Position numbers and translations under genes: made by a program
Part shown: positions 9,296 through 30,949 of the stretch, one piece after another
How positions within the stretch are numbered: the stretch's first letter is position 1
How the letters are laid out: each line of letters opens with the position of its first letter
Source: Cupriavidus necator
Lineage (GTDB): Bacteria; Pseudomonadota; Gammaproteobacteria; Burkholderiales; Burkholderiaceae
Reading direction: 5' to 3'
DNA length: 32,000 nt
NCBI RefSeq assembly: GCF_016127575.1
Contig: NZ_CP066018.1
Coordinates: 570,001 to 602,000 of the forward strand
The notes under the pieces: model-generated
Database searches by the model: none
What the model was told of the DNA's origin: nothing
What the model saw: the letters and a program-made list of their open reading frames with translations, nothing else

Positions 9296-10768
9296 TCAGT
9301 CCGTTGCTTTGAGCATATCTTCGACCACCTTCTTGGCGTCGCCGAACACCATCATGGTCTTGTCCATGTAGAACAGTTCGTTGTCCAGCCCGGCATAGCC
9401 GGCGGCCATCGAGCGCTTGTTGACGATGATGGTCTTGGCCTTGTACGCCTCCAGGATCGGCATGCCGGCGATCGGCGACTTGGGGTCGTTCTTGGCCGCC
9501 GGGTTGACCACGTCGTTGGCGCCCAGCACCAGCACCACGTCGGCCTGGCCGAACTCGCTGTTGATGTCTTCCATCTCGAAGACCTGGTCGTACGGCACCT
9601 CGGCCTCGGCCAGCAGCACGTTCATATGGCCCGGCATGCGGCCTGCCACCGGGTGGATCGCGTACTTCACGGTCACGCCCTTTTCGGCCAGCTTCTCGGT
9701 CAGTTCCTTGAGCGCGTGTTGGGCGCGCGCCACGGCCAGGCCATAGCCCGGCACGATGATGACCGTCTCCGCATTGCCCATCAGGAAGGCAGCGTCATCG
9801 GCCGAGCCCGATTTCACATTGCGCTGCGCCTGCCCTGCCGGGCCGCTCGCGGCCGCGGCGTCGCCGCCGAAGCCGCCCAGGATCACGTTGAAGAACGAGC
9901 GGTTCATCGCCTTGCACATGATGTACGAGAGGATGGCACCGCTTGCCCCCACCAGCGAGCCGGCGATGATCAGCATCGGGTTGTTCAGCGAGAAGCCGAT
10001 GCCCGCTGCTGCCCAGCCCGAATATGAGTTCAGCATCGACACCACCACCGGCATGTCGGCGCCGCCGATCGGGATGATGATCAGCACGCCCAGCACGAAG
10101 GCGAGCGCCAGCATGACCAGGAACGGCATCCACGCCTGCGTCAGGAAGAATGCAATGCCGAAGCCTACCATCGCCACCGCCAGCAGCAGGTTCAGCCAGT
10201 GCTGGCCGGCAAACACCACCGGCGCGCCCTGGAACAGCCGGAACTTGTAGCGCCCGGCCAGCTTGCCGAAGGCGATCACCGAGCCCGAGAAAGTGATGGC
10301 GCCGACGAAGCAGCCAATGAAGAGCTCGATGCGGTTGCCCAGCGGAATGTCGTGCGAACCGGCAGCCGTGATGCCGAAGGCAGCGGGCTCCGCCACTGCC
10401 GCCACCGAGATAAACACCGCGGCCAGGCCGATCAGCGAGTGCATCGCCGCCACCAGTTCCGGCATCTTGGTCATCTGCACCTTCTTCGCCACATAGGCAC
10501 CGATACCGCCGCCCACCACCAGCGCGGCCAGGATCAGCGCCAGGCCGGTGCCCGGCGCGGACGGGTCCGCCCCGCCGGAGAACAACCCACTCTTCAGCTT
10601 GAAGATCAGCGCCACCGTGGTAAGCGCCGCGACCACCATCCCGGCCATGCCGAAGACATTGCCGCGCCGCGCCGTGGTCGGGTGTGACAGCCCCTTGAGC
10701 GCCTGGATAAAGCACACAGACGCGCCCAGGTAGGACAGCGTCACCATATTCATCGACAGGCCATTCAT
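9296..10768 (-). CDS. pntB: NAD(P) transhydrogenase subunit beta
   Basis: 490 aa. [29 protein letters not shown]..., a multi-TM N-terminal half and a C-terminal NADP(H) domain (...[16 protein letters not shown]...[14 protein letters not shown]...[12 protein letters not shown]...). Its start overlaps the pntAB stop (ATGA). Confidence 0.95.
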
Positions 10769-11115
10769 TGCGCTACCTCCGCCAGTTTTCCGCCGGGCTG
10801 CCCCTTGGCTTCGGGCTGCGCCTTGGGTGCCTTCTTCCTGAACATCTCCAGCATGCGCTGCGTGACCAGGAAGCCGCCGAACACATTGACCGCTGCCAGC
10901 GCCACCGCCAGCGTGCCCATTGCGCGGCCAACGTAGCCCTCGGTCAGGCCGGCGGCCAGCATGGCGCCGACGATGATGATGGCCGAGATTGCGTTGGTCA
11001 CCGCCATCAGCGGCGTGTGCAGCGCGGGCGTGACCGTCCAGACCACGTGGTAGCCCACGTAGATCGCCAGTACAAAGATGATCAGGTTGATCACCGTGTG
11101 GCTAACCATTTCCAT
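10765..11115 (-). CDS. pntAB: NAD(P) transhydrogenase subunit alpha, part 2 (membrane segment)
   Basis: 116 aa and very hydrophobic ([45 protein letters not shown]...). It sits between pntAA and pntB, the three-gene split arrangement known from Rhodospirillum and many proteobacteria. Confidence 0.9.
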
Positions 11116-11137
11116 CGATATCTCCTTGATTGCCGGA

Positions 11138-12256
11138 TCAGCTGGCCAGCGCCAGTTCTTCGCGCCGTGTCATCAGGCAGGCCGCGACCATGTCGTCGTC
11201 GGTGTTGATCACGAGCTTGCCGTCCTTGTCGATCAGCAGCTTGAGAAAGTCGAGCACGTTGCGCGCGTACAGCGCCGAGGCGTCCGCCGCGACCATGCCG
11301 GCCAGGTTGGTGTGTCCGATCAGCACGACGCCGTGGCGCTCGACCACTTCGTCGGCCACCGTCAGCGGGCAGTTGCCGCCCTGTGCCGCGGCCAGGTCCA
11401 CCACCACCGAGCCGGGTTTCATCTGCGCCACAGTGGCTTCCTGCAGCAGCACCGGCGCCTTGCGGCCCGGGATCAGCGCGGTGGTGATGACGATATCGGC
11501 CTGGATCGCGCGCTGGTGGACCAGTTCGGCCTGGCGCTTCATCCAGTCGGGCGGCATCGGGCGGGCATAGCCGCCCACGCCCTGTGCGATCTCGCGCTCT
11601 TCGTCGGTGAGGAAGGGCACGTCGAGGAACTTGCCGCCGAGCGATTCGATCTGCTCCTTGACCGCGGGGCGCACGTCGGAGGCCTCGATCACCGCGCCCA
11701 GGCGCTTGGCCGTGGCGATGGCCTGCAGGCCCGCCACGCCCGCGCCCAGGATCAGCACGCGCGCCGCCTTGACGGTGCCGGCGGCGGTCATCAGCATCGG
11801 CATGAAGCGCTGGTAGTGGTGCGCCGCCACCAGCACGGCCTTGTAGCCGGCGATATTGGCCTGCGACGACAGCACGTCCATGCTCTGCGCGCGCGTGGTG
11901 CGCGGCGCGGCTTCGAGGGCAAAGGCGGTGATGTTCGCGGCGGACATGCGCGCGTTGTTCTCGGCATCGAAGGGATTGAGCATGCCGACCAGCACGGCGC
12001 CCGGTTTCATCTGCGCCAGTTCGGCGGCGTCCGGTGCGCGCACCTTGAGCACCAGCTGGGCGCCCAGAGCTTCGGCGGCGGTGCCGATGGTGGCGCCGAC
12101 CGCCTCATACGCGCTGTCGGGCTGGCTGGCGCTTACGCCGGCGCCGGCCTGCACGACCACCTTGTGGCCCTGCGCGACGTACTTCTTGACTGTCTCCGGG
12201 GTGGCGGCGACGCGAGTCTCGCCTCGCAGTGTTTCCAGCGGAATACCAATTTGCAT
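11138..12256 (-). CDS. pntAA: NAD(P) transhydrogenase subunit alpha, part 1 (dI, NAD(H)-binding)
   Basis: The true start is the internal ATG at 12256 ([26 protein letters not shown]...). Alanine-dehydrogenase/PNT fold with [22 protein letters not shown]. The 26-codon upstream extension in track ORF 11138..12334 has no homology-like features. Confidence 0.95.
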
Positions 12257-12365: not shown

Positions 12366-13142
12366 TCAGGCGAGCGTCAGGCCGCCGTCGACGAGAAGGG
12401 TCTCGCCAACCATATAGGAGGCCAGGGGAGAGGCCAGGAAGATGGCTGCCCCGGCTATCTCGTGCGGCAAGCCCATGCGGCCGATGGGCACGCGCGACAG
12501 CGTTGCATCGAGCCGAGCCGGCGACGCCGTGGTCACCTTGGTCAGTTTTGTGTCCACCAGGCCAGGGGCGATGCCGTTGACGCGAATACCTTCGGCTGCC
12601 CACGCTTCACCCAGCGTACGGGTCAAGCCCACCACGCCGGACTTGGATGCGGCGTAAGCCGGGTTTCCCCGCACGGACCGGAAGCCCGCGATCGAGCTCA
12701 GCGTAATCAGCGAACCCCGGCTCTCATGGAGCATCGGCCGGAACTTGACCGCGCAGGCCATCACGCTGGACAGATTGACGTGCAGCACCTGGTCAAAGGT
12801 GACCATCTCGAACTCGGCACGCTTGTACTGGATCGTACCTTGCGCCAGCACCAGCACGTCCAGGCGTTCGAAGGCGGGCCGCACGGCGTTGACGGCCGCC
12901 TGGTCGGAAACATCCACTTGCGCGTAGTGCAGGCCAGAAAGATCTGAACCTTCGTCGAAGCGATAGTCGGACGCCCGGGCACGCGTGCCCCAGGCGTGAA
13001 CCTCTGCACCGAGTTGCCGGAATGCCTGCGCGATGCCATTGCCTATGCCGCTGGAGCCCCCCACAACCAACACGGTCTTGCCGGTGAAATCGAGGGACTC
13101 GGCAAACCGGGGCTGAGCGAGGGGAGAGTTGGAATTCGTCAT
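12366..13142 (-). CDS. SDR-family oxidoreductase
   Basis: Internal ATG 13142 (MTNSNSPLAQ...). TGKTVLVVGGSSGIGNGIA cofactor motif and YAASKSG (YxxxK) catalytic motif. 258 aa. No convincing SD, so the start is moderately uncertain. Confidence 0.85.
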   Translation of the reverse strand: MTNSNSPLAQPRFAESLDFTGKTVLVVGGSSGIGNGIAQAFRQLGAEVHAWGTRARASDYRFDEGSDLSGLHYAQVDVSDQAAVNAVRPAFERLDVLVLAQGTIQYKRAEFEMVTFDQVLHVNLSSVMACAVKFRPMLHESRGSLITLSSIAGFRSVRGNPAYAASKSGVVGLTRTLGEAWAAEGIRVNGIAPGLVDTKLTKVTTASPARLDATLSRVPIGRMGLPHEIAGAAIFLASPLASYMVGETLLVDGGLTLA

Positions 13143-13298: not shown

Positions 13299-14375
13299 TC
13301 ATCGCGCCTGCTTCTGCAGGTATTTCCAGGCCATCGCGGCCATGGGTCGGGCGAGCTTTCCCGTTTCGAGCGCCTGCGCCGATGACGCCGTGCCATCCAC
13401 CACCCGCTTCATGATCCCCTGCAGGATGCCTGCGGTTCGGAACATGCTGAACGCGAGATAGAAGTTCCAGTTCCCGCCGATCCTGCGCCCGGTGCGCTGC
13501 TCATACGCGCGGCGGTAAAGCGCTTCGTCCGGGATACCCAGGTTGGCCCGGTCGACACCTCCCATGCCTCGCAGCGGGCCCGGTGAAATGTGCCAGCTCA
13601 TGCAGTGATAACTGAAATCGGCCATCGGATGACCCAGCGTCGACAGCTCCCAGTCGAGCAGCGAGAGTACGCGGGGCTCGGTCGGATGGAACATGAGGTT
13701 GTCGAGCCGGTAGTCCCCGTGCACGATGCAGACCTGCTCCTCCGCTTCCTCCGGGATTCGGTCGGGCAGCGATGCAATCAGCGCATCCATCGCCGGGATC
13801 GATTCGGTTTCGGACAGCCTGTACTGCCTGCTCCATCGTTCGATCTGGCGAAAGAAATAATTGCCGGGCTTACCGTAGTCCGCAAGGCCGATGGCCTTGT
13901 AGTCCACGCGATGCAACGCCGCGATCACGCGATTCATCTCGTCATAGATCGCCGTACGTTCGCTGTTGCTCATGCCAGGCAGCGCGGGATCCCATAGCAC
14001 GCGGCCATTGACGAATTCCATGATGTAGAAGGCACGACCGATGACGGCTTCGTCCTCGCACAGGGCATACATCCTGGCCACAGGCACTTCGGTGTCGGCA
14101 AGCGCCGCCGTCACACGAAACTCGCGCTCGATCGCATGCGCCGACGGCAGCAGCTTTGCCTTCGGCGCGGGCTTGGCGCGCATCACGTAAGCCTGGCGCG
14201 GCGTGACGAGCTTGTACGTTGGATTGGACTGGCCGCCGCTGAACCGCTCAACGGTCAGCGGGCCGGCAAAGCCTTCCACATGGCGCGCCATCCAGGCTTC
14301 GAGTCCGCCCAGGTCAAAACCCAGTGTCTCCTGTGCCGGCCGCGTGCCGGCGAACGCTGAAGAAGCATTGCTCAT
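13299..14375 (-). CDS. Phosphotransferase (APH/choline-kinase fold) family protein, ACAD10/11-N-terminal/LvaA-like
   Basis: Internal ATG 14375 (MSNASSAFAG...). ...ERFSGGQSNPTYKL... nucleotide-binding lysine region and Brenner motif IVHGDYRLDNLMF, followed by LLDWELSTLGHP. 358 aa. Confidence 0.85.
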   Translation of the reverse strand: MSNASSAFAGTRPAQETLGFDLGGLEAWMARHVEGFAGPLTVERFSGGQSNPTYKLVTPRQAYVMRAKPAPKAKLLPSAHAIEREFRVTAALADTEVPVARMYALCEDEAVIGRAFYIMEFVNGRVLWDPALPGMSNSERTAIYDEMNRVIAALHRVDYKAIGLADYGKPGNYFFRQIERWSRQYRLSETESIPAMDALIASLPDRIPEEAEEQVCIVHGDYRLDNLMFHPTEPRVLSLLDWELSTLGHPMADFSYHCMSWHISPGPLRGMGGVDRANLGIPDEALYRRAYEQRTGRRIGGNWNFYLAFSMFRTAGILQGIMKRVVDGTASSAQALETGKLARPMAAMAWKYLQKQAR

Positions 14376-14388
14376 CCGGTCGCCCCGT

Positions 14389-15060
14389 TCATCGAAGCGC
14401 CGGCACGGGAGCCAGCGACCCCGCATCCTTTTCCGCGCGATCCAGCGCGCAGTACGCGTAGTACAGCTCCACACACATGAACGACCAAGTCAGGCAAGCG
14501 AGCGAAAAGAAGATCAGGTGTTGCTCGTCGTCGCCGGGGATCGTATGGAAATCATAGATGCAGGCAATGGCTTGCGCGGTCAGCAGGACCATGAACACGC
14601 CAAATGCGTGCCAGCCTTCCCCGGCGCTGAGCAGCTTCCAGGCAAACCAGGCCAGGTATACCGAAAATACCGACCACATCACCACATAGAAATACGGCCT
14701 CGGCTGCGCCAGCGCGTCGATCGACAACAGCACGATCGTCCCTGCGATCGCTCCCGCGAAGAACACGACATCCATCAGGATGGACGGCTTGTAGCGATGC
14801 GTAACGGACATCAGCCCGGCCAAGGCAACCACCGGGATGCCGAAGCCCCGGGAGAACGCATCGCAAAAGTACGAGATGCCATACGAAAACTGCACGCCAC
14901 CCAAGGCGAAAAGCAGGAAATTCGACGCGGAGAAGGTCACGATCAGCCATTCGAAGCCGAGCAGGTAGTTGCGCTGCCTGAGGAACTTCAGGCCGTGGAT
15001 CAATGACGTCATCACGAGGACGAACATCGCAAAACAGAGAAGATAGAGATTGCGGTCCAT
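14389..15060 (-). CDS. Integral membrane protein of unknown function (about 7 predicted TM segments)
   Basis: ATG 15060 follows GGGAG by 6 nt. 223 aa with seven hydrophobic stretches of 20-25 residues read by eye. I recognise no family motif. It lies 37 nt after the cytochrome c stop and 13 nt before the kinase start. Confidence 0.7.
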   Translation of the reverse strand: MDRNLYLLCFAMFVLVMTSLIHGLKFLRQRNYLLGFEWLIVTFSASNFLLFALGGVQFSYGISYFCDAFSRGFGIPVVALAGLMSVTHRYKPSILMDVVFFAGAIAGTIVLLSIDALAQPRPYFYVVMWSVFSVYLAWFAWKLLSAGEGWHAFGVFMVLLTAQAIACIYDFHTIPGDDEQHLIFFSLACLTWSFMCVELYYAYCALDRAEKDAGSLAPVPALR

Positions 15061-15097: not shown

Positions 15098-15757
15098 TCA
15101 CGGCTTTCGCGGCGCCAGACTGGCGAGGTAGGTGGCCATCGCCTTGCGGTCCTCCGGCGACGCCGCCGCGGCCACGCTTTTCATCATCCCGGTCGGTTCG
15201 CCGCGCGTGCCGGTGGCAAACGCATCAAACTGCGCCAGCAGATACTCGTAGCCCTGGCCCGCGAGGCGCGGGAACTGGTCGTGCCCCATCAGCTGGCTGC
15301 CATGGCACGCGGCGCAGTTTCCCGAGGCCACCAGCCGCTTGCCCTTCTCCAGCAATCCCGCATCGGGCGTGAAGTAACGGTTGGCGCCGGCCGGCTGCCT
15401 GGCGAAGTGGCCGGCAAGATCGTTGATCTCTGCCTCACTCATCGTCTTGGCCAACGGGCCCATGATCGGATTGGACCGCTCCCCGCTGGCGAACTTGCGA
15501 AGCTGGGCCGCCACGTACGGTGCCGGCTGGCCCGCGAGGCTCGGATAGCCCTGGTGCAGCGAATTGCCCTTGGCACCGTGGCAGCCGATGCAGGCGTCGG
15601 TCACGCGTGGCCACGGGCTGCCGTCGGCGTTATAAGCGGCAGCCGACGCCGTGATATAGCGGTCGAGGCGATAGATCCCCAGGAGGTCGTGGCCGAACCA
15701 GGCGAGCAGCCCGGCGGCAGCGATAGCGGGAACGCCCAGCCATATGCGCTTCTTCAT
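15098..15757 (-). CDS. Dihaem c-type cytochrome (cytochrome c4-like) with N-terminal signal/anchor
   Basis: ATG 15757 follows an AGGAGA SD by 5 nt. Hydrophobic N-terminus MKKRIWLGVPAIAAAGLLAW. Two CxxCH motifs (CIGCH at residues 56-60, CAACH at residues 148-152), each followed by a P-x-LAGQ motif and Met-containing stretches (PIMGP, GMMKS) as in class I/c4 cytochromes. Confidence 0.9.
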   Translation of the reverse strand: MKKRIWLGVPAIAAAGLLAWFGHDLLGIYRLDRYITASAAAYNADGSPWPRVTDACIGCHGAKGNSLHQGYPSLAGQPAPYVAAQLRKFASGERSNPIMGPLAKTMSEAEINDLAGHFARQPAGANRYFTPDAGLLEKGKRLVASGNCAACHGSQLMGHDQFPRLAGQGYEYLLAQFDAFATGTRGEPTGMMKSVAAAASPEDRKAMATYLASLAPRKP

Positions 15758-15766
15758 TTCCGTCTC

Positions 15767-17245
15767 CTAGGCGCGACGCAAGGCATTGAGAACCTGGAGG
15801 GCGGCCTGATGGCCAGAGCGCACGGCGCCATCCATGTAGCCGGCCCAGATCTCGGCCGTCTCGGTGCCCGACCAGATAAGCCTGCCGCAGGGCGGCCGCA
15901 ATGCCTCGCCGTGGGTGCTCCAGAAGCCCGGCGGAATCGCGGAGACACAGGTGATCGTCCAGGGATCGGCACGGCCCCAGTCGTGATCGTGGTATGACAC
16001 CGGCGCCAAGGCTTCGCTGCCGAAGGCCTGCGCATAGATCTCTGACAGGAACCTCTGCGCCGCCTTGTGATCCGAGGGAACCGACGCATTCGAGATGAAG
16101 GCATTGATAACGCCGAGCTCGCCCCCCGGCGGCGAGTTGTCGAAGGCCCACAGAATGGGCCCGTCGACCTGGAAGATGTGTCCGTTCAGTCCCTTGTCGC
16201 GCCAGAACGGACGGGAATAGACCATCGCCGTCTTCCGCGCCGGCGAATGGGCGGGCCAGGCGCGCTGCAGCGCTGCACGCTTCTGCGGCAGCGGCGGATC
16301 GAACTGCAACTGCTGGCACAAGGGTGGACTCAGTGCCATGATGACCTGGCGCGCGCGCACTTCGCCCTGGTCCGTGTGCAGCGTGACGACCTCGCGGTCC
16401 CAGTTCGAGATCCGCCGGACGGGGCTCGACAGGCGCACCCTCTTCCCCAATGCCTGCGCCATCCTGACGCAGAGGATCTGCGAACCACCGGCAAATCGCG
16501 TTTCCTGGGCGCTGTGCTTGATGCTGTCCAGCTGCATATAGTCGCAGGCGGCCGAGTTGATCATTGACAGGAAATGGAGCATCCCCATTTTTGCCGGCAT
16601 CACGCCACCGGAAAGCGCGATGCTCGCATTCCACCCCGTTCGGTCCTCGGGCTTGATGTTCTGCTTCGCCAGCCAGTCGCCGACCGACAGTTTGTCCAGT
16701 TCCACGACCTTCGGTGATTTCCACGGCGCGCCCGACGGCACGTCGCGCGAAAGCACGCTGAGCCTGCCACCGATCGCCTCGTCGCTGCCGAATGTGCCCT
16801 TCAGGTCGACCTCCAGACGACCGTCACCGCCGAGGATGACCGTGTTCCCCTTGTAGTAGCTGGGAAACGTGCCCACATCGAGTTCGCGCGCCAGATCGGC
16901 CACCGCCGTCTGGCCGGGGCCGATCCACTGTCCCCCGACTTCGGACACCTGTCCCGAACCCACATCGTAGTTAAGCGTCCGCCCGCCCACGCGATTGCGC
17001 GCTTCCAGCACGACAAAGGACTCGCAGCCTGCCTGGCGCAGGTCCCTCGCGGCGGTCAGGCCCGCCAGGCCCGCGCCGATGATGGCGACGTCGAGGACGT
17101 CTTCGGGCGTGCCGGCTTTGGCCGCCGCCTTGGCCGGCCCCGGGCTCAAGCCGATGGTTCCTGCCGCCGTGGAGGCGCCGGCCATTTTCAGCAATTGCCT
17201 TCGCTGCGTGTTGATTGAAGTGTCCGAGGACGAAATCTTGCCCAT
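15767..17245 (-). CDS. Tat-exported flavin-containing amine oxidase family protein (MAO/putrescine-oxidase-like)
   Basis: 492 aa. After the signal region comes DVAIIGAGLAGLTAARDL...VLEARNRVGGRT...VGGQWIGPGQT, resembling the MAO/putrescine-oxidase clade. The stop is 9 nt upstream of the cytochrome c ATG. Confidence 0.9.
   Translation of the reverse strand: MGKISSSDTSINTQRRQLLKMAGASTAAGTIGLSPGPAKAAAKAGTPEDVLDVAIIGAGLAGLTAARDLRQAGCESFVVLEARNRVGGRTLNYDVGSGQVSEVGGQWIGPGQTAVADLARELDVGTFPSYYKGNTVILGGDGRLEVDLKGTFGSDEAIGGRLSVLSRDVPSGAPWKSPKVVELDKLSVGDWLAKQNIKPEDRTGWNASIALSGGVMPAKMGMLHFLSMINSAACDYMQLDSIKHSAQETRFAGGSQILCVRMAQALGKRVRLSSPVRRISNWDREVVTLHTDQGEVRARQVIMALSPPLCQQLQFDPPLPQKRAALQRAWPAHSPARKTAMVYSRPFWRDKGLNGHIFQVDGPILWAFDNSPPGGELGVINAFISNASVPSDHKAAQRFLSEIYAQAFGSEALAPVSYHDHDWGRADPWTITCVSAIPPGFWSTHGEALRPPCGRLIWSGTETAEIWAGYMDGAVRSGHQAALQVLNALRRA
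17126..17245 (-). other. Twin-arginine (Tat) signal peptide coding region of the amine oxidase
   Basis: MGKISSSDTSINTQRRQLLKMAGASTAAGTIGLSPGPAKA/AAKA. The T-Q-R-R-Q-L-L-K stretch matches the (S/T)-R-R-x-F-L-K pattern and is followed by a mildly hydrophobic h-region and AxA sites. This depends on the 17245 start being used rather than Met21. Confidence 0.7.
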
Positions 17246-17269: not shown

Positions 17270-17638
17270 TCATTGCGGGTCGAGCGCAAACCTGCGAACG
17301 CTCTTCCCGCTTCTCATGCTTCTGTGCCGGACAGCCCAGACGAGCCCACGCAGCGCCTGTTGATCGACTTGTTGGACTGCGGCTGTACACTGCTCCAGCA
17401 CCTCCTGCTCCGGGAACAGCATGAGTTCGGCCGCGCTCCCCAATACGAGCGCGATATCGAATGGCGAGCCTGTCGCGAGCGCGTGCCGCAGAAGGCTCGA
17501 CAAGCGGCGTTCGATGGCGGCACCGTCCGCGGCGTCCATTCGAATCCTTGCGACCGATGCCCGGATGAAGTGGAGCAGCTCACTGGAGCCAGGCTGATGC
17601 CCGAAGGCGGTCGTGGTCGAGCAGGAGCTTGACGTCAT
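17270..17638 (-). CDS. Hypothetical protein (122 aa), no recognisable family
   Basis: It fills the 480-nt gap between the ACAD and the amine oxidase on the same strand. ATG 17638 follows GGGAAAG by 6 nt (the track ORF starts at TTG 17656). About three quarters of third-codon positions are G/C by my hand count, lower than neighbouring genes but above non-coding expectation. A competing + strand ORF (17273..17632) exists. Confidence 0.4.
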   Translation of the reverse strand: MTSSSCSTTTAFGHQPGSSELLHFIRASVARIRMDAADGAAIERRLSSLLRHALATGSPFDIALVLGSAAELMLFPEQEVLEQCTAAVQQVDQQALRGLVWAVRHRSMRSGKSVRRFALDPQ

Positions 17639-17725: not shown

Positions 17726-19015
17726 CTACTCCCGCGCCCACCCATTCTGGTAGAGGCGCCCGGCCAGCACGCCCAACCGCGACGTGAGCACGTAGTTCTC
17801 GCCGTCCTCGATCAGCGCCGAGCGCGCGTCGCGGAACAACTTCTCGATCGGGAACTCGCGCGTCGTGCCGTTGCCGCCGAAGAGCTGAAATGCCTCGTGC
17901 GTGATCTTCATGGCCTCCTCGGTTACGCTGACCTTGGCCTGCGCGGTCGCATAAGGGTGGCTCTGCGGAGACAGTCGCGCGAACGCCAGGCTGCGCCGGG
18001 CGATGGCCCGTGCCATCTCGAGCCGGCGCAGCATCTCGCCCACGCGCAACTGGGTCATCTGGTGTTCCAGCAGCAGCGCCCCGCCCTGCTTGCGCTCATG
18101 GCAATAGGCAAGCGCAAGTTCGAACGCGGCGCGGGCCGCACCGACAAAGACCTGGCACATGTGAGTACCTGCGAACGACCATGTAGAAGCCAGGTTTCCG
18201 AGGTACTCATCCTTCAGCGCGATGGCGAAGCGCTTGGGCACCCTGACGTTATCAAAATAGATCTCGCCCTGGGGCAACGCACGCTGGCCGATCTTGTCCA
18301 GCGGTTTGCCGCGCGAAATGCCAGGCAGGTCGAGCGGCAGGATCAGGCCGATGCCGTTGGTGAACGCGCCGTGCTCATCCGTCCCGTGGAACCCGTCGCC
18401 ATAGTCCGCCGCCATGTAGGCGAGCGCCACCTGTGCCACCGACCCGTTCGACACCCATGCCGAGCTCTGCCCGTTGATGACGATCTCGTCGGCACCGACC
18501 CTGGCGGTCACGTTGCCAACCGGCTGCTTTCCGCCTGCGCTCAGCTCTTCGCGGTAGAGGATCGCGGCATCGGAGCCACGGTCAGGCTGCGTATTCATCC
18601 AGCAACCGATCTTTCCAGTGCACATCTCGATCAGTTCCTGATTGCCGAGCGACTGCGCCATCGTCAGCGGCATGGTCGCAGCGCCGAGCGAAACGGCCAG
18701 ACCCGAATCCCCCCAGCCCAGCTCTTCGCCGATCAGGGACTCGATGCGCACCGCGACCTCCGGCGGGAACTGCGCGATGAGTTGCGGATCGAGCCCGAGC
18801 TTCGCGCTCTCCATCATCGCCGTCCAGTACGGAGAACCCGCAGCGATGACGTCCTCGGGCGCCATGCGGTCAAGCTCCCTGCCGATCGGCCGCAGCACAT
18901 CGCGCGCAAAGCGATGAACCGTCTGCTGAATCGCGTTTTCCTCTTCGCTCAGCGGCGTCTCGAATCCGGTCAGGCCAACTACCGGCAACGCCGCGGTCTT
19001 GTGCAATCGAATCAT
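17726..19015 (-). CDS. Acyl-CoA dehydrogenase family protein
   Basis: The true start is ATG 19015, 5 nt after a strong AGGAGGAG SD (MIRLHKTAALPVVGL...). 429 aa. ACAD N-, middle and C-terminal domains, with ...AFQLFGGNGTTREFPIEKLFRDARSALIEDGENYVL near the C-terminus. The 107-codon extension in the track is rejected. Confidence 0.9.
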   Translation of the reverse strand: MIRLHKTAALPVVGLTGFETPLSEEENAIQQTVHRFARDVLRPIGRELDRMAPEDVIAAGSPYWTAMMESAKLGLDPQLIAQFPPEVAVRIESLIGEELGWGDSGLAVSLGAATMPLTMAQSLGNQELIEMCTGKIGCWMNTQPDRGSDAAILYREELSAGGKQPVGNVTARVGADEIVINGQSSAWVSNGSVAQVALAYMAADYGDGFHGTDEHGAFTNGIGLILPLDLPGISRGKPLDKIGQRALPQGEIYFDNVRVPKRFAIALKDEYLGNLASTWSFAGTHMCQVFVGAARAAFELALAYCHERKQGGALLLEHQMTQLRVGEMLRRLEMARAIARRSLAFARLSPQSHPYATAQAKVSVTEEAMKITHEAFQLFGGNGTTREFPIEKLFRDARSALIEDGENYVLTSRLGVLAGRLYQNGWARE

Positions 19016-19082: not shown

Positions 19083-19100
19083 ATCGTGTTAGAACACGAT
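19083..19100. promoter_or_regulatory. Inverted repeat ATCGTGTT-AG-AACACGAT (8-bp arms), candidate TetR-B operator upstream of the ACAD gene
   Basis: Read directly, 68-85 nt upstream of the ACAD ATG and just downstream of the TetR-B terminator. It is followed by two copies of CCAAACATA (19102-19110 and 19121-19129) and a short AACAT-N5-ATGTT repeat, all in an AT-richer stretch. Confidence 0.4.
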
Positions 19101-19135
19101 ACCAAACATAGGTCATGTTGCCAAACATACAAGCG

Positions 19136-19162
19136 AAAAAAAAGACAGGGTATTCCCTGTCT
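19136..19162 (-). terminator. Rho-independent terminator downstream of TetR-B
   Basis: On the minus strand: AGACAGGG-AATA-CCCTGTCT, a perfect 8-bp stem with a 4-nt loop, followed immediately by TTTTTTT. It lies 38 nt after the TetR-B stop codon (19200-19202). Confidence 0.8.
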
Positions 19163-19199
19163 CCTGGCGTTGGCACGCAGTAGCGTTGCTTTGTCGCCG

Positions 19200-19883
19200 C
19201 TAGCCGGCCATTTCGGTTGACCGCTCCTTGAATATGATCTGCTCGACAGCGGTCCGATATGCCGCATCGAGCCCGCGCGAGTCACGCTTGCGACGCCCCG
19301 CGCCGACCTGCAGCGCCAGTCCGTCGGCCAGCGCAATCAGCAACGAGGCAGCGTGCAGGCTGTCTGCCGTTTTCAGTTCCGGATTGATCGCCCGCACCAG
19401 TTCCGCAATGCCGCGCGTCAGCGTGTCATACCACTCCTCAAACATCCGCGCGCACTCGGGATCGGTCGATGCCAGCGAAACGAAGTGCCACCACAGCGCC
19501 GAGTCCTTGACATTCCTCGCGTCGCTGAGCGCCTTATCCAGCAGTGCGTTGAGCGACTCGCGCGGCGTGACGCGGCTGTCCAGCGCGCGCTTCAGGTCTT
19601 CGAGATAGGCGTCGATAATCGGCGCCATGATCGCCCGCAGGACGGCCTGCCGGGTGGGAAAGTAGTACTGGAGATTGCTGATGCTAATCCCGGCGCCGAG
19701 GGCGACGGCACGCAGCGAGAATTCCAGGCTGCCGCCCTCGAGCAACAGCTTTCTGGCAACGCGAACGATGGCATTGCGCGTGCGCAAGCCCTGGGCTCGC
19801 AAGCTGTCGGGGTCGGCTCCTGTGGCGGCTGCGCTCGATGCACGCCGCTTCCTGGGGGTGCGCTGCTCCATGGGCACTGTCAT
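19200..19883 (-). CDS. TetR/AcrR-family transcriptional regulator (B)
   Basis: 227 aa. HTH ...IVRVARKLLLEGGSLEFSLRAVALGAGISISNLQYYFPTRQAVL. The start may be ATG 19883 or ATG 19871. Confidence 0.9.
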   Translation of the reverse strand: MTVPMEQRTPRKRRASSAAATGADPDSLRAQGLRTRNAIVRVARKLLLEGGSLEFSLRAVALGAGISISNLQYYFPTRQAVLRAIMAPIIDAYLEDLKRALDSRVTPRESLNALLDKALSDARNVKDSALWWHFVSLASTDPECARMFEEWYDTLTRGIAELVRAINPELKTADSLHAASLLIALADGLALQVGAGRRKRDSRGLDAAYRTAVEQIIFKERSTEMAG

Positions 19884-20052: not shown

Positions 20053-21402
20053 CTACGACCGCGCTGCGTAGCGTGCCTTGCGGTTCACCCGATCGTCCAT
20101 CATGTTGGCCACGCCCAGCGCGGAATTGACGGCGCACCATTGCAGCGGTTCGGGCAGCGTCGACGGCGTCCTGTGGTGCAACGCCGAGAGTAGCGGATGC
20201 TCCGCGCCACGTATCCGTTCGGCCAGCAGCAGTCCCATCAACGACTGGGTACCTACGCCATGCCCGGAACACCCGGCGGTATAAAGGATGTTGCGGTCAG
20301 CACCCGCCGCGCCGACCACGGGCAGCGCATCGTAGGCAAGGCTGATGTACCCGCTCCAGCATGACCGGATGGCGACCCCTCCCAGCATGGGAAACCGCTC
20401 ATGCAGCGCCCTGGCCAGGGCACGGTAGGACGCTTCGTCCGGCACGTTCGGTGTCTGCGCACCATAGATGTAGCGCAACCGCTTCGTCGTCAGAACAAGC
20501 GTATTGCGCGCCGTCAGCCGATGGCTTTCCATGGTCCAGTGCGACGTCACGATGCCTTCGCGCCGTGGCCAGCCAAGCGACGCCAGTTGCGCCGAGGACA
20601 ATGGCTCAGTCTCGATTGCCGACACCCGCAGCGGCATTACCTTGTTCCGCAGCAAGCCAAGTTGCGGCGTATAGGCGTTGGTTGCAAGCACCAGGAACGG
20701 CGCGCTCGCGCTGCCCTTCGCGGTCCGCACCCGGACGGTGGGACCTTCGTCCCAGGACAGCACCGGCGTGTTCTCATAGAGCTTCACGCCCGCGCGCAGC
20801 GCCGCGCGCCGCAGCCCCAGAACATACTTGCCGGGATCGAGCGTACCGCCACGAGGGACATGACATCCGAACAGGAACGCCGGCGGGATGCCCCGTGCCC
20901 GCATCGCGGCGTAGTCCAGAAACTCCCCGGGAGAGCCAAGTTGCACGCCGGTACGCATGCTCTTGCGCAGCTTCCTTTCCTGGGACGGATGGACGCCCGC
21001 GCGGATGATGCCCGAGGCGTTGTAGTCGCAGTCGATCGCGTACTCTGCAAGCTTGCGCTCCACGTAGTCGACGCCTTCATCGTAGAAGCGCACGATTTCC
21101 CTGGCCTGCTGGTGTCCCACGCGCTTGAGAAACAGGTCGTACTCCAACCCCTGCCCACCCGCAAGATAGCCCGCGTTGCGCCCGCTCGCGCCGAACCCGG
21201 CGAACTCGCGTTCGAGGACGATCACCTTTGCCCCGCGCGCGGCAAGCTCCAGCGCGGTGGACAGTCCGGCAAAGCCGCCCCCGGCAACGACCACATCCGC
21301 GCTGACGTCACCGTCGAGTTGCGGCTGCAGGTCATCTGGCCGCTCCACCCAGCCTCCAAGTGGCCGATACGCCTGTCCGCCTTGCCAGTTGAACCCGTCC
21401 AT
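20053..21402 (-). CDS. FAD-dependent oxidoreductase, DAO family (PuuB-like); paralog B
   Basis: ATG 21402 follows a GAGGGAGG SD by 5 nt. The track start 21417 is a GTG overlapping the thiolase stop. ADVVVAGGGFAGLSTALELA...LEREFAGFGASGRNAGYL. Colinear with paralog A (2919..4280), including the shared C-terminal tail ...LPEPL(Q/R)W...(D)(D/E)R(V/S)NRKAR. Confidence 0.9.
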   Translation of the reverse strand: MDGFNWQGGQAYRPLGGWVERPDDLQPQLDGDVSADVVVAGGGFAGLSTALELAARGAKVIVLEREFAGFGASGRNAGYLAGGQGLEYDLFLKRVGHQQAREIVRFYDEGVDYVERKLAEYAIDCDYNASGIIRAGVHPSQERKLRKSMRTGVQLGSPGEFLDYAAMRARGIPPAFLFGCHVPRGGTLDPGKYVLGLRRAALRAGVKLYENTPVLSWDEGPTVRVRTAKGSASAPFLVLATNAYTPQLGLLRNKVMPLRVSAIETEPLSSAQLASLGWPRREGIVTSHWTMESHRLTARNTLVLTTKRLRYIYGAQTPNVPDEASYRALARALHERFPMLGGVAIRSCWSGYISLAYDALPVVGAAGADRNILYTAGCSGHGVGTQSLMGLLLAERIRGAEHPLLSALHHRTPSTLPEPLQWCAVNSALGVANMMDDRVNRKARYAARS

Positions 21403-21413
21403 ATCTGCCTCCC

Positions 21414-22655
21414 TCACTCCTTGCTCAAAATATGGATTGCAAGCGCAGCCTCTTCGACGCCCTGCAAGCCGCCACCGTTCTCCTGAATCGCGTGACGCGC
21501 GCCGCCTACCTGCCGCGCCCCTGCTTCTCCACGCAGTTGGGTGACCAGTTCGTAGAGCTGGCCGATACCTGTCGCACCCAGTGGATGGCCCTTGGATTCA
21601 AGGCCGCCAGACGTGTTGATCGGAATGCGCCCGCCGAGTGTAAATTCCCCGCGCTCCGCAGCCGGCCCACCCTCCCCCAGCGGCACCAGCCCAAGGTTTT
21701 CGGCCTGGATGATCTCGCCCATCGCCGAGGCATCGTGTACCTCGGCCACGTCGATATCCTCAGAGCCCAGGCCGGCCTGCTCATAAGCCTGAAGCGCGGC
21801 GAGGCGGCCGATGTTCTTCTCCGGCTCGTCGATGCGCCGATGCGAAAAGCTGCGGATCACGCTCGCCGCGATCCGGATGCAACGACTGCGATCGGCGCCG
21901 ATGCGCCGCAGACCCTCTTCCGTGCAGAGGATTGCCGCCGCTGCACCGTCCGAGACCGGCGCGCACATCGGCAGCGTGATCGGATAGGTGATCGGCGGCG
22001 CGGCGAGCACCTCTTCGACCGTAAAAGCCTGGCGGAACTGCGAATGCGGGTTGTGCACCGAATGCCCGTGATTCTTCGCCGATATAGCCGCAATCTGGCG
22101 CTGTGTCGTGCCGTAGGTCTTCATGTGATACCGGCACAGGGCGGCATAGATCTTCATGAAGCGGCTATAGGGCCGGTCGGATTCCGATCCCGGCGGCGGC
22201 TCGATGCCTTCCCCCAGCTTCGCCAGCGTCGCGAAGTTTTCCTCGACGCGGGATACGTCCCATCCCGCGTCGAACAAGGCGAACGACCTCGACTTGTCAG
22301 CGACGTTCATCTTCTCCGCGCCAAGTGCCAGCGCGACGTCGCAGCTGCCTGCCCTGAGGTGCTGTACTGCAAGGTGCACCGCCGTGCTGCCGGACGCGCA
22401 GGCATTTTCGACGTTGAACACAGGAATGCCTTCGATACCGACCTTGCTGAATACGACCTGGCCAGGGATCGACAACTGCCCCTGAAGCTGGCCATTGGTG
22501 ATGCCGGCGTAGAAGGCCGCACCGATGGCGTCGGCACTACAGCCGGCGTCCTGCAAGGCGCCGCGTAGCGCGGCACCGGCGAGTCCCTCGATGCTCATGT
22601 CGAAATGCCGGCCGAAGATGGTCATTGCGATGCCGGCGATGTAAATGTTGCTCAT
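21414..22655 (-). CDS. Thiolase-family protein, SCP-x/lipid-transfer-protein type
   Basis: True start ATG 22655 (MSNIYIAGIAMTIFGRH...). Catalytic Cys in VENACASGSTA, and GHPLGATG and ENGGG motifs near the C-terminus. 413 aa. The 79-codon upstream extension in the track is rejected. Confidence 0.9.
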   Translation of the reverse strand: MSNIYIAGIAMTIFGRHFDMSIEGLAGAALRGALQDAGCSADAIGAAFYAGITNGQLQGQLSIPGQVVFSKVGIEGIPVFNVENACASGSTAVHLAVQHLRAGSCDVALALGAEKMNVADKSRSFALFDAGWDVSRVEENFATLAKLGEGIEPPPGSESDRPYSRFMKIYAALCRYHMKTYGTTQRQIAAISAKNHGHSVHNPHSQFRQAFTVEEVLAAPPITYPITLPMCAPVSDGAAAAILCTEEGLRRIGADRSRCIRIAASVIRSFSHRRIDEPEKNIGRLAALQAYEQAGLGSEDIDVAEVHDASAMGEIIQAENLGLVPLGEGGPAAERGEFTLGGRIPINTSGGLESKGHPLGATGIGQLYELVTQLRGEAGARQVGGARHAIQENGGGLQGVEEAALAIHILSKE

Positions 22656-22678: not shown

Positions 22679-24235
22679 TCAGATCTTGCGTTGCTGTCCT
22701 TGCCAGTACTGTTCTCTCAGATCCTTCTTCAACACCTTCCCGACCGGGCTTCGCGGCAGTGCGGCGACGAATTCCACGCTCTTCGGCGCTTTGACCGAGC
22801 CGAGCTTCTGTTTGCAAAGGGCAACGAGCTCGTCGGCGCTTACCTCGTAGCCCGCATTGAGTTCCACCACGGCTTTCACCGCCTCGCCCCACTTCTCGTC
22901 CGGCACGCCGATCACCGCGCAGTCCTGCACAGCCGGATGGGACCAGATCACCTGCTCGATTTCACTCGGATAGACGTTGAAGCCGCCGCTGATGATCATG
23001 TCCTTCTTGCGGTCGGTGATATGGAGGTAGCCCTCCGCATCGAGGTGTCCGATGTCGCCGGTATGCAGCCAGCCGTCGACGATCGCCTCCGCAGTCTTGT
23101 CGGGCGCCTTGTAGTAGCCCTTCATGACGAGGTCGCCGCGCACGCAGATCTCGCCGGTCTCGCCTTGCGGCAGAACCTCGCCGTGCTCGCCCATGATCTC
23201 CACACGGATGAGCGGGTTGGGACGGCCGACCGAGGATAGCCGTTCGTCGGACGCCAGTTCGCCGCCGACAAAATGCTCGGCCGGCGTCAGGTAGGAGATC
23301 GACGCCGGGGCCTCGGTTTGACCGTAGCCGCCGGCCATGATCGGGCCAAACACCTCGATAGAGCGCTTGAGCTTCTCTACCGACATGGGCGCAGCACCAT
23401 AAAGGAAGTACTTGAGCGATGAGAAATCCTGTTTCCCGATCCCGGGAATGTCCAGCAACCGGTAGATCACCGTCGGCGGCAGGAAGAGCTCCGTGACCCG
23501 GTGCTTCGCAATCGCACCGATCAACGCTGCCGGGTCCGGCTTCGGCAGCACGACCACCGTACCGCCGCGCGCAGTGCAGGGCAGCGACAGCATCCCGGCG
23601 GTATGCGTCATCGGCGCGGCGGCGAGATTCACCGGGCGTTCGTCCCCCTGGTAGGGGAACGCCATCATGAACTGCGCGAAGTACGCCTGGTAAGCGCGGT
23701 GCGCGTTCATTACGCCCTTGGGTGCTCCGGTCGTCCCGCCCGTTGCCGAAAGGGTCACGACATCGTCCATGTCGTAATCGATGAGCGGCGCGCTCGAGGC
23801 CTGGCCCTCGCTCCAAGTAGACAGCGACGGCGCCCACGGCAGCGCGGCATCGATACACACCCAGAGCCTGACCTTCGGCAGTCGGGGACGCAGCGTCTCG
23901 ATTACCGATGCGAACGCTTCCTGGAAGAACAGCACTTCGCAGTCGAATGCGTCAAGAATGAACTGGTTCTCCTCCGGCGCGTTGCGCCCGTTGACGGGGA
24001 TGTACGCCATCCCCGCTCGCCATAGCCCCAGCGCACAACTCCAGGCAGTCACGTCGTTATCTGCCCAGACCGCTCCCTTGGTTTCCCTGCCGAAGCCTTC
24101 CGCCAGCAACCCGTTGGCGATGCGGCAGGAAAGCTCGCCAATCTCCCGGAACGAGTAGCTGCGCTCGCCCTGGATATAGGCAATGCCGCGGGGATTGATG
24201 CGCAACCCGCGGTCAAAATAATCAATGATTGCCAT
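22679..24235 (-). CDS. AMP-dependent acyl-CoA synthetase/ligase (ANL superfamily)
   Basis: 518 aa. AMP-binding signature LSATGGTTGAPKGVMNAH, then YGQTE, GDIGHLDAEGYLHITDRKKDMIISGGFNVYP and a C-terminal ...LPRSPVGKVLKKDLR. GAGGA SD 9 nt upstream of ATG 24235. Confidence 0.9.
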   Translation of the reverse strand: MAIIDYFDRGLRINPRGIAYIQGERSYSFREIGELSCRIANGLLAEGFGRETKGAVWADNDVTAWSCALGLWRAGMAYIPVNGRNAPEENQFILDAFDCEVLFFQEAFASVIETLRPRLPKVRLWVCIDAALPWAPSLSTWSEGQASSAPLIDYDMDDVVTLSATGGTTGAPKGVMNAHRAYQAYFAQFMMAFPYQGDERPVNLAAAPMTHTAGMLSLPCTARGGTVVVLPKPDPAALIGAIAKHRVTELFLPPTVIYRLLDIPGIGKQDFSSLKYFLYGAAPMSVEKLKRSIEVFGPIMAGGYGQTEAPASISYLTPAEHFVGGELASDERLSSVGRPNPLIRVEIMGEHGEVLPQGETGEICVRGDLVMKGYYKAPDKTAEAIVDGWLHTGDIGHLDAEGYLHITDRKKDMIISGGFNVYPSEIEQVIWSHPAVQDCAVIGVPDEKWGEAVKAVVELNAGYEVSADELVALCKQKLGSVKAPKSVEFVAALPRSPVGKVLKKDLREQYWQGQQRKI

Positions 24236-24363: not shown

Positions 24364-25497
24364 TTACAGATGCGAAACCGTCGCACGAGCCAGCCCGCGC
24401 TGCTCGAGGAAGCCGAGCAGGTAGCGGTGTCCGAAGGCCTTCGAGCCGGATGCGAAGCCGACCTTTGCGGTGTCGCCGTCGAGTAGTTTGATGACGCCTG
24501 CCGTCTGGATAGCCCCGGTGGCGATGTATGGCGTGGTCCCATGCACGGTCGCCCGCACCGAAGCGACCTGACCGCGGCCGATGGCGAAATCGACGGTGCG
24601 CTGCAGCGTAGTGCGTTCCCTTGGCGGCATGGCCGGCGTGGTCGAATCAACGATCTGCTTCAGCACCGCGTCCTGCTGCTCGCGGGGCAGGTGCTTGTAC
24701 TCTGCTTCCCACTTCTTGCCCAGCGCATGCACTGTCTGCATCGCGTTGTTGTCGTAAAAACCGACACTGGAGATGCAGCTGCGTACGCGCGGATCGTTTT
24801 CGAAGTAGACCGGCAGCGACGTACCGCCCCACGGCAGACAGAACACCGGTTGCATGAAGGCAGGATCGACCACATTGAACGACGCATCCGCCGCATATGG
24901 CACCAGCTTCTTCTCCCAGAGGTAGCAAGCCTCGTGGCGATAGCCTTCAAAGATCGTCGCGGTCGAACCCACGCTCACGCCGGCACCGCCGCTACGCGGG
25001 CCGCGCGCCAACGTCGCGGTTTCCAGGGCATCGACGCCGGGTGTCTCCAGCGCCAGCTCCGCGGCAATCTCGGCGAACGTGTACATGTAGGCATTGGACG
25101 GCGACAGCAGCAGCCCGGCCTGCCGGTACAGGTCGCCGAATTGATCGCGCGCCCGGCGGATGTGCGGCTGCTCGCCCGTGGTGTCGAGGTAATGGCATCC
25201 CGCCTTGAGCGCCGCTTCGACGCCAACGAGCCCGACCGTGGAGAATGGCCCGACGGTGTTGCATACCACCCTCGCGCCGCGGAATGCATTCACCAGGGCA
25301 TCGACGTCATGTTCCGCCTCGATGAGTTCATAGTTTGCCGATTCCAGGCGCACGACACGCTGTGCCATCATTTCCTTCGCCCGGCCTGCGTTGCGCGCCA
25401 CGGCCGTAAAAGGGATGCCCTGGTCGATCAGCCAGTCCATGATCAACATGCCGGTGTAGCCGCTTGCGCCATAGACGACGACGGGGTGCTTTGCCAT
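24364..25497 (-). CDS. Saccharopine-dehydrogenase-like NAD(P)-binding reductase family protein
   Basis: ATG 25497 follows an AAGGAGA SD by 6 nt. N-terminal Rossmann MAKHPVVVYGASGYTGMLIMDWL. The 377-aa length and layout fit the saccharopine dehydrogenase-like / trans-acting enoyl reductase-like family. The substrate is not inferable. Confidence 0.8.
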   Translation of the reverse strand: MAKHPVVVYGASGYTGMLIMDWLIDQGIPFTAVARNAGRAKEMMAQRVVRLESANYELIEAEHDVDALVNAFRGARVVCNTVGPFSTVGLVGVEAALKAGCHYLDTTGEQPHIRRARDQFGDLYRQAGLLLSPSNAYMYTFAEIAAELALETPGVDALETATLARGPRSGGAGVSVGSTATIFEGYRHEACYLWEKKLVPYAADASFNVVDPAFMQPVFCLPWGGTSLPVYFENDPRVRSCISSVGFYDNNAMQTVHALGKKWEAEYKHLPREQQDAVLKQIVDSTTPAMPPRERTTLQRTVDFAIGRGQVASVRATVHGTTPYIATGAIQTAGVIKLLDGDTAKVGFASGSKAFGHRYLLGFLEQRGLARATVSHL

Positions 25498-26570: not shown

Positions 26571-26594
26571 GGGAGATTGACGCCTACTTGCGTC

Positions 26595-30919: not shown

Positions 30920-30949
30920 GCCTGTCTCCCCGTGGTTCTCTTTTTTGGC

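Follow-up and report, generated by a model that had tools for sequence, protein, structure and literature searches.

A putative periplasmic flavin-dependent amine dehydrogenase paired with a dihaem cytochrome c4 in Cupriavidus necator

Published flavoprotein-cytochrome pairs and the C. necator locus

Flavoprotein amine oxidoreductases (FAOs) that carry a signal for export by twin-arginine translocation (Tat) and are encoded beside a cytochrome c form a recently described group. Starting from NicA2, Akram et al. 2025 (Biochemistry 64:2834; PMC12224317) collected more than 100 bacterial pairs of a Tat-FAO and an adjacent cytochrome c, which fall into three clades. Clade 1 is composed of a Tat-FAO and a membrane-bound dihaem cytochrome c4 (c4) of approximately 20 kDa, and its members from Burkholderia metallica, B. 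stagnalis, and Pseudomonas aeruginosa were assayed. Here we describe a pair of this architecture in a 32,000-nucleotide stretch of Cupriavidus necator DNA (contig NZ_CP066018.1, positions 570,001 to 602,000; referred to below as the window), in which a gene for a 492-residue FAO is directly followed by a gene for a 219-residue dihaem c4. We consider it probable, at roughly three chances in four, that the two proteins form a periplasmic flavin-dependent amine dehydrogenase system of clade 1, which passes electrons to respiration and not to O2.

In the published assays, the clade-1 enzymes react with O2 with rate constants (kox) of 160-590 M-1 s-1, close to that of free flavin. Their kox with their own c4 amounts to 290-2700 M-1 s-1, and the monohaem clades reach 1e4-1e6 (PMC12224317). 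By analogy with these enzymes, the C. necator FAO is predicted to react slowly with O2 and to reduce its c4. An earlier note on this DNA had read the pair as an amine:cytochrome c dehydrogenase, and the published clade-1 enzymes, slow with O2 and modest in reducing c4, speak for this reading. The same note took NicA2 and Pnao as the only exceptions among the O2-using flavin amine oxidases, which is out of date in view of the published pairs, and it regarded the pair as probably an uncharacterised type of respiratory amine dehydrogenase, a kind that had already been published in 2025 with clade 1 included.

The traits that the C. necator pair has in common with clade 1 are the Tat motif on the FAO, the adjoining cytochrome gene at a gap of 9 nt, and the anchored dihaem c4 of 219 residues. 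Both clade 1 and the present locus combine a Tat-FAO with a dihaem c4 in one operon, and the orthologues in the three assayed species are 73-77% identical to the FAO. Species, architecture, and cytochrome type together make a strong case for placing the pair in clade 1. The assayed enzymes are those of other species, whereas the C. necator pair is known from its sequence and is matched to the clade by species. What our analysis adds is a co-conserved protein with seven transmembrane (TM) helices, an invariant cysteine (Cys433) at the position of covalent flavin adenine dinucleotide (FAD) attachment in monoamine oxidase (MAO), and a gene context that hints at a lipophilic amine. None of these three features, neither the 7-TM gene nor the cysteine aligned with the flavinylation site nor the catabolic neighbourhood, is mentioned by Akram et al. 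(PMC12224317).

The flavoprotein and its cytochrome partner

The FAO matches the Pfam family Amino_oxidase (PF01593) with 190.2 bits (cutoff 19.8, E=1e-55), from residue 60 to residue 486 and from profile position 1 to 443. This full-length match above the curated threshold makes it a member of the MAO/FAO superfamily, and amine C-N oxidation is predicted from this membership. The mature protein would have a mass of approximately 48.6 kDa once the predicted Tat signal of about 41 residues is removed. An identical 492-residue FAO with the same neighbours is found on chromosome 1 of C. necator H16 (AM260479.1, ~917-939 kb). Among solved structures, the closest is the bacterial 'monoamine oxidase' 8p84 (1e-86), followed by putrescine oxidases (1e-57 to 1e-62), human and rat MAO-A/B (about 1e-55), and cyclohexylamine oxidase (1e-53). 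A literature search by PDB code for the identity and substrate of 8p84 gave nothing relevant. NicA2 (1e-24 to 1e-26) and Pnao (7e-20) are more distant. The assignment to a MAO/putrescine-oxidase-like clade apart from NicA2, made in the earlier note, is thereby borne out (E ~1e-55 to 1e-87 versus ~1e-20 to 1e-26).

The active-site residues were compared in an alignment of 121 sequences. Arg337 and Lys338 are invariant, and Lys338 is likely the conserved lysine of the family beside flavin N5, which we take to correspond to Lys296 of MAO-B and Lys340 of NicA2. Such an N5-adjacent lysine is nearly universal among FAOs (PMC12224317). Tyr470 is invariant as well, and the motif GGQWIGPGQT occupies residues 104-113. 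Particularly, Cys433 is present in 121 of the 121 sequences and is placed by HMMER opposite the cysteine of the SGGCY motif in MAO-A and the equivalent cysteine of 8p84, where putrescine oxidase has an alanine. The aligned cysteine of MAO bears 8-alpha-S-cysteinyl FAD. Since Cys433 is invariant and aligned with these cysteines, it is a reasonable inference that the FAD is probably bound covalently through it. The following residue 434, which is the first tyrosine of the aromatic cage in MAO, is a valine in the FAO and either Val or Ile across the alignment. The combination of Cys433 with Val/Ile in place of the cage tyrosine suggests that the FAD is covalently bound and that the substrate pocket is altered and of a more aliphatic character.

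The N-terminal region of the FAO contains the sequence TQRRQLLK (residues 13-20, nt 17186-17209) at a distance of 41 residues from the Rossmann fold behind it. It is followed by a mildly hydrophobic stretch and then by AKA/AAKA at residues 38-44, the candidate cleavage sites (nt 17114-17134). The export signal was compared among 120 FAO homologues with 70-99% identity. In 117 of them RRx[LWF]LK is found at equal spacing to the Rossmann fold, and the gene calls of the remaining three begin at an internal start and are thus truncated. At least 95% of the homologues share R15, R16, and L19, and K20 is conserved too, while the other positions of the n- and h-regions drift. Position 21 is mostly Tyr, Phe, or Leu and Met21 is not conserved, which excludes an alternative start at Met21 for this family. 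Motif, position, and conservation together argue for export of the FAO by the Tat pathway. The twin-arginine signal proposed in the earlier note is thus supported, and the orthologues do not share the internal Met21 start that was named there as a reason to doubt it.

The junction between the two genes reads GCC TAG GAGACGGAA ATG AAG, and the Shine-Dalgarno sequence AGGAGA ends 5 nt ahead of the ATG. The cytochrome matches Pfam Cytochrom_C in two stretches (E=1.4e-17). Its haem-binding motifs CIGCH (residues 56-60, nt 15578-15592) and CAACH (residues 148-152, nt 15302-15316) are each followed by a PxLAGQ signature (YPSLAGQ and FPRLAGQ). At least 95% of 78 cytochrome sequences retain Met99 and Met192, the candidate axial ligands. 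Cytochromes c4 and c552 in the PDB match the protein at ~1e-19 to 1e-14 (best c4 entries 6e-19 and 8e-18), and the haem subunits of flavocytochrome c sulfide dehydrogenase match it at ~1e-14 (1fcd_C, 3vrd_A). With two class I domains, each containing a CxxCH motif and a putative axial methionine, the protein is a cytochrome c4 by sequence. The elements listed in the earlier note (open reading frames, RR motif, 9-nt gap, Shine-Dalgarno sequence, two CxxCH motifs, and P-x-LAGQ signatures) were all recovered in place.

The N-terminus of the cytochrome starts with MKKR and continues into a hydrophobic segment. In the homologues, this segment consists of 17-20 Leu/Ile/Val/Ala residues and ends with F/Y-G-P or F-G-S, often with a proline at +1, and no AxA signal-peptidase site was found in the N-terminal segment of these sequences. 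The lack of an AxA site together with the frequent proline at +1 favours an uncleaved signal-anchor, by which the c4 would be tethered to the membrane.

Conservation of the pair was assessed with one genome per species among 327 relatives, of which the best 80 loci (61-90% FAO identity) were analysed, and their genes were counted by tblastn with the window proteins. The survey covers Cupriavidus, Pandoraea, Burkholderia, Paraburkholderia, Caballeronia, Trinickia, Ralstonia, and Massilia, together with Pseudomonas, Marinobacterium, Sphingomonas, Nevskiaceae, and a metagenome-assembled genome of Rhodospirillaceae. A c4 homologue adjoins the FAO gene in 79 of the 80 loci. In 78 of these it is encoded 12-108 nt downstream on the same strand and in one (L087) upstream, and the sole locus without a c4 homologue stops at a contig edge. 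This observation agrees with the expectation of the earlier note that the oxidase and the cytochrome stay together, and it disposes of the objection that they might not. The species with assayed clade-1 enzymes are among these loci, with FAO identities of 75% for B. metallica (L035), 77% for B. stagnalis (L026), and 73-74% for the island copy of P. aeruginosa (L006-L008). The gene order FAO-c4-membrane protein is the same in all of them, and their c4 proteins are 52-59% identical to that of C. necator.

In many genomes another FAO-c4 pair, or a tandem of the type FAO-FAO-c4, is located near the first, often accompanied by TetR, RidA, and PhyH genes. Examples are located in L094 (6751-8885), L091 (20791-21488), L092 (8315-9793), and L093 (1-1793).

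The 7-TM protein and the fate of the electrons

The gene that starts 37 nt past the cytochrome stop encodes a membrane protein (7-TM protein) that matches no Pfam or NCBIfam family. It is found in 78 of the 80 loci, mostly directly after the cytochrome gene and usually 35-40 nt behind it. Of three 7-TM homologues whose surroundings were inspected, that of Pseudomonas likewise stands directly behind FAO-c4. Only 272 homologues were retrieved from 5.8 billion sequences, all of them annotated as 'hypothetical' and belonging to the same genera as the FAO-c4 loci. The AlphaFold2 model (40 sequences) has a pLDDT of 91 and a pTM of 0.86 and contains seven TM helices. A Foldseek search of this model against the PDB gave no match at E<=1e-3, and a generic likeness to 7-TM bundles appears at E 0.02 or worse. 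Two motifs are invariant in the family, D67-A-F-S-R-G-x-G-x-P76 and Y169-D-F-x-x-I-P-G176. The alignment contains no conserved His, Cys, or Met, which makes a redox cofactor unlikely, and together with the generic fold likeness this gives no support to a haem b/quinone subunit. The 7-TM protein is part of the same pathway, not necessarily as a fixed subunit, and possible roles are a dock at the membrane or an importer of the oxidation product.

A further multi-TM protein of 238 residues, without a family, adjoins FAO-c4-7TM in 41 loci (for example, L091 9195-9911 and L006 7227-7943). In Pseudomonas its gene precedes the FAO gene on the upstream side, in Paraburkholderia it stands downstream of the 7-TM gene, and the C. 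necator window lacks it.

In the proposed mechanism, the FAO would fold and bind FAD in the cytoplasm, probably covalently through Cys433, and would be exported in folded form by the Tat pathway. In the periplasm, it would oxidise the C-N bond of the amine to an imine, which would be hydrolysed to an aldehyde or ketone and ammonia. The reduced flavin would not be reoxidised by O2 but would hand two electrons singly to the c4, co-translated and tethered to the membrane. From there the electrons would proceed to a terminal oxidase, so that amine oxidation would be coupled to respiration and no H2O2 would be formed. The carbonyl or acid product would be imported, possibly through the 7-TM protein, and then handled by the neighbouring CoA ligase, acyl-CoA dehydrogenase (ACAD), SCP2-thiolase, and DAO enzymes.

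Several points weigh against this picture of a self-sufficient clade-1 pair. The published c4 rates of clade 1 are 100-1000x below those of the monohaem clades, and no amine substrate is reported for any clade-1 member (PMC12224317). With rates so low, c4 as a sufficient acceptor is not established. The placement in clade 1 is a match of species, architecture, and cytochrome type and not a position in a tree, and the assignment to the Tat pathway is drawn from motif, position, and conservation. Among the neighbouring genes, the accessory ones vary from genome to genome, the APH kinase, the SDR, and the small open reading frame being specific to Cupriavidus; the context therefore yields a substrate class and not a compound. 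Moreover, the 7-TM gene of Telluria lies four genes downstream of FAO-c4 in the same operon, and on a metagenome contig (Noviherbaspirillum-like) it stands beside ACAD and DUF1329/DUF1302/MMPL genes, and its 6-kb flanks contain neither an FAO nor a c4.

The main rival explanation builds on the low c4 rates, which Akram et al. attribute to the missing membrane environment (PMC12224317). It holds that soluble c4 is a poor acceptor and that c4 alone is insufficient, turnover requiring the membrane and the 7-TM protein, often with the 238-residue protein as well. The 7-TM protein would then serve FAO and c4 as a dock at the membrane, or offer the enzyme an amine dissolved in it. The near-constant presence of the 7-TM gene close behind c4, the small size of its family and the matching taxonomic range, a confident fold prediction that matches no known family, and the 41 loci with the adjacent 238-residue protein are all in line with such a three-component system. 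However, the 7-TM protein lacks conserved residues for a redox cofactor, and its gene is unlinked from the pair in Telluria and on the metagenome contig, which weakens the idea of a fixed subunit. In addition, no separate 7-TM gene goes with the second FAO-c4 pairs of Pseudomonas, and import of the oxidation product would explain the 7-TM protein equally well. On balance, we judge a strict three-component requirement to be rather improbable, and the amine dehydrogenase with c4 as electron acceptor remains our preferred reading.

A true oxidase and a non-amine substrate are both unlikely. If the FAO were a periplasmic oxidase that makes H2O2, the cytochrome would serve another purpose; some Tat-FAOs without a nearby cytochrome do react fast with O2, and product binding can speed the O2 reactivity of other FAOs (PMC12224317). 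The FAO-c4 adjacency is, however, near-invariant and tightly coupled, the O2 reaction of clade 1 is no faster than that of free flavin, and family scans of the window proteins and neighbours revealed neither a catalase nor a peroxidase gene in the cluster, so that we give this idea very little weight. Least probable of all is a C-C desaturase or another PF01593 oxidoreductase of the phytoene-desaturase/HpnE type, for although NCBIfam returns weak, far-below-cutoff matches to HpnE and carotenoid desaturases and the first cage tyrosine of MAO is Val434 here, the full-length likeness to amine oxidases (1e-87 to 1e-51) is far above that to the desaturase models, the amine oxidase active-site residues Lys338 and Tyr470 are invariant, and the DAO, RidA, and aldehyde dehydrogenase neighbours suit amine/imine chemistry.

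Gene neighbourhood and comparison with known systems

The pair belongs to a long series of genes on the minus strand (Table 1). Their order is DUF1329, DUF1302, MMPL/RND, BNR/Ycf48-like, DUF5938, acyl-CoA ligase, SCP2-type thiolase, and DAO-family protein, followed by TetR, ACAD, the small open reading frame, FAO, c4, 7-TM, APH-type kinase, SDR, and pntAA-AB-B.

Table 1 Coordinates of the FAO-c4 pair, its sequence elements, and its neighbours in the window
Feature	Position	Strand	Remarks
SDR	12366-13142	-	with the APH kinase immediately downstream in Cupriavidus only
APH-family kinase	13299-14375	-	PDB 3dxp 1.8e-188; ACAD11 kinase domain 5e-77
Integral membrane protein (7-TM)	14389-15060	-	223 residues, seven predicted TM helices; own GGGAG Shine-Dalgarno sequence
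Dihaem c4-type cytochrome c	15098-15757	-	219 residues, 23.2 kDa precursor; Pfam Cytochrom_C
FAO-c4 spacer, 9 nt	15758-15766	-	AGGAGA Shine-Dalgarno sequence overlaps the FAO stop codon TAG
FAO (FAO/MAO family)	15767-17245	-	492 residues; open reading frame list and Pfam PF01593
TITCVSA segment including Cys433	15938-15958	-	HMMER alignments to MAO-A and 8p84
ARKTAM segment including Lys338	16223-16240	-	Lys338 aligned to Lys of 8p84
GAGLAG dinucleotide-binding motif, FAD domain	17060-17077	-	FAO residues 57-62
Predicted Tat signal peptide, residues 1 to ~41	17123-17245	-	motif and conservation
Small open reading frame	17270-17638	-	89-122 residues depending on assembly; no family
ACAD	17726-19015	-	429 residues; Pfam; MCAD-like at 1e-30
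TetR/BetI-type regulator	19200-19871	-	27/80 loci
DAO-family FAD amine oxidoreductase, cytoplasmic	20053-21402	-	449 residues; Pfam DAO 6e-66
SCP2-type thiolase	21414-22655	-	SCP2-thiolase type-1 at 6.5e-66; 42/80 loci
Acyl-CoA ligase	22679-24235	-	51/80 loci
DUF5938 NAD(P)-binding protein	24364-25497	-	31/80 loci
BNR/Ycf48-like protein	25590-26570	-	
MMPL/RND transporter	26595-28973	-	
DUF1302	28973-30919	-	
DUF1329	30950-31987	-	cut by the window end

Of these neighbours, the DAO gene accompanies the pair in 53 of the 80 loci (65-87% identity) and the ACAD gene in 38 (80-93% identity); taken together, the syntenic copies of the DAO, ligase, thiolase, ACAD, and DUF5938 proteins are ~65-93% identical to those of the window. 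The DAO protein has a weak, below-cutoff likeness to the NCBIfam models of L-pipecolate oxidase and aminophosphonate oxidoreductase. The small open reading frame and the APH kinase are each conserved in 10 loci and the SDR in 14. The kinase is in essence PDB entry 3dxp and is homologous to the ACAD11 kinase domain, a 4-hydroxyacyl-CoA kinase type. A levulinate-type context (LvaABCDE or ACAD10-11) was set aside as a clue to the substrate, given that the kinase, SDR, and small open reading frame occur in just 10-14 of the 80 loci and the ACAD is MCAD-like.

Between the TetR and ACAD genes (19096-19165, minus strand), a terminator-like hairpin with an 11-bp stem is followed by a promoter-like site, TTGGCA-17-TATCGT (19096-19124, a consensus match only). 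This arrangement suggests that the transcription unit probably begins at the ACAD gene. A search of the same intergenic region for an operator gave no inverted repeat.

The four-gene envelope module DUF1329-DUF1302-MMPL/RND-BNR (25590-31987, minus strand) heads the cluster. It also stands beside FAO-c4 in B. ubonensis (L089, 15337-21494) and P. putida (L091, 1121-7620). The literature places this module within or close to catabolic gene clusters for hydrophobic compounds, with reports for the metabolism of phenanthrene, p-cresol, steroids, and monoterpenes, and phenotypes on fatty esters have been reported as well. In P. putida, an aldehyde dehydrogenase gene directly follows the 7-TM gene, and a Baeyer-Villiger monooxygenase, an esterase, a ligase, a GMC oxidoreductase, and a second FAO-c4 pair are also present. 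The neighbours of the pair in B. ubonensis are TetR, PhyH, RidA, and the DUF1329/DUF1302/MMPL/BNR module, and those in Sphingomonas are a TonB receptor, PhyH, RidA, an FMO-like monooxygenase, and a tandem FAO. RidA as an imine deaminase, the aldehyde dehydrogenase, and the Baeyer-Villiger monooxygenase would fit the downstream handling of an imine, aldehyde, or ketone. Taken as a whole, the gene context hints weakly at a lipophilic, possibly branched, amine as the substrate.

Behind the cluster lie the transhydrogenase genes pntAA-pntAB-pntB (9296-12256, minus strand). Homologues of pnt occur at most 10 kb from the pair in 19-20 of the 80 loci, and also in Telluria (L093), and their recurrence suggests a demand for NADPH in the pathway.

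The window contains a second flavin amine oxidoreductase (4368-5672, plus strand), a protein of 434 residues without a signal peptide. It is 27% identical to the FAO, matches NicA2/Pnao at about 1e-69, and probably represents the NicA2-like clades as an oxidase of the cytoplasm. Its flanking genes encode an MFS transporter (1442-2875), a TetR-like open reading frame (5680-6339, minus strand), and a PhyH dioxygenase (78-914).

On these grounds we tentatively put forward a wider proposal, which we hold to be possible but doubtful as yet, namely that the pair forms the periplasmic entry into a catabolic pathway, widespread and so far undescribed, for a lipophilic, possibly branched, amine in Cupriavidus, Burkholderia, Paraburkholderia, Pseudomonas, and others. 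Its parts would be the DUF1329/DUF1302/MMPL/BNR module, the FAO, the c4, the 7-TM protein, the DAO protein, the DUF5938 reductase, the CoA ligase, the SCP2-thiolase, and the ACAD, with the 7-TM protein needed at the membrane for docking or for handing over substrate or product. Such a need would explain why the clade-1 enzymes are sluggish in solution assays. With this locus, the much-studied and genetically tractable C. necator H16 joins the recently recognised MAO-like enzymes that feed respiration rather than produce H2O2. If the substrate, the clade-1 electron-transfer rates, and the role of the 7-TM protein were solved in H16, a new amine catabolic route would be defined. The same work would test whether membrane context controls the choice of acceptor in this enzyme family.

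Several known systems resemble the C. necator pair in part. MAO-A/B, 8p84, putrescine oxidase, and cyclohexylamine oxidase have the GGQWIGPGQT region, the N5 lysine, and the second cage tyrosine in common with the FAO, and MAO and 8p84 also share the cysteine at the position of covalent FAD. The first cage tyrosine of this group is replaced by valine in the FAO, and in the alignments the sequences of these oxidases begin at the FAD domain, without a Tat signal. O2 serves as the acceptor of the MAO-group oxidases, which are not known to have a partner cytochrome.

NicA2 and Pnao of P. putida S16, with their cytochrome CycN, belong to the same superfamily and likewise combine Tat export with reoxidation by cytochrome c instead of O2. 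CycN, however, is a soluble monohaem protein of ~11 kDa, whereas the C. necator partner is a dihaem c4. The substrates of NicA2 and Pnao are intermediates of the nicotine pathway and their genes lie in a nicotine cluster, whereas no such cluster is present here. Owing to the sequence distance (7e-20 to 1e-26, compared with 1e-55 for MAO) and the dihaem partner, the NicA2/Pnao-CycN type was rejected for the pair.

The flavocytochrome c sulfide dehydrogenase FccAB also consists of a periplasmic FAD subunit and a dihaem cytochrome subunit. Its flavoprotein, however, is a sulfide-oxidising member of the disulfide-reductase family, and the two subunits form a stable heterodimer.

SphB and SphC of P. 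aeruginosa are a co-operonic cytochrome c and a Tat-exported periplasmic flavoprotein, for which oxidation of the lipid amine sphingosine has been proposed. SphC is a validated, flavin-binding Tat substrate, SphB is a periplasmic monohaem cytochrome c, and both are required for the detoxification of sphingoid bases. The earlier note had named them as a pair of this architecture, which is correct, but a relationship to FAO-c4 does not follow. By its published description SphC resembles D-arabinono-1,4-lactone oxidase, whose flavoprotein fold differs from that of the PF01593 protein in C. necator, and the gene for SphB, a monohaem lipoprotein, stands upstream of that for SphC, whereas the dihaem partner in C. 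necator is encoded downstream of the FAO. Orthology with SphC was also rejected because the 74%-identical P. aeruginosa homologue of the FAO (P0074) lies in an integrase/TraI island and not at PA5326-5328. SphBC and FAO-c4 are analogues and not homologues, each joining a Tat-exported flavoprotein to a cytochrome c encoded in the same operon.

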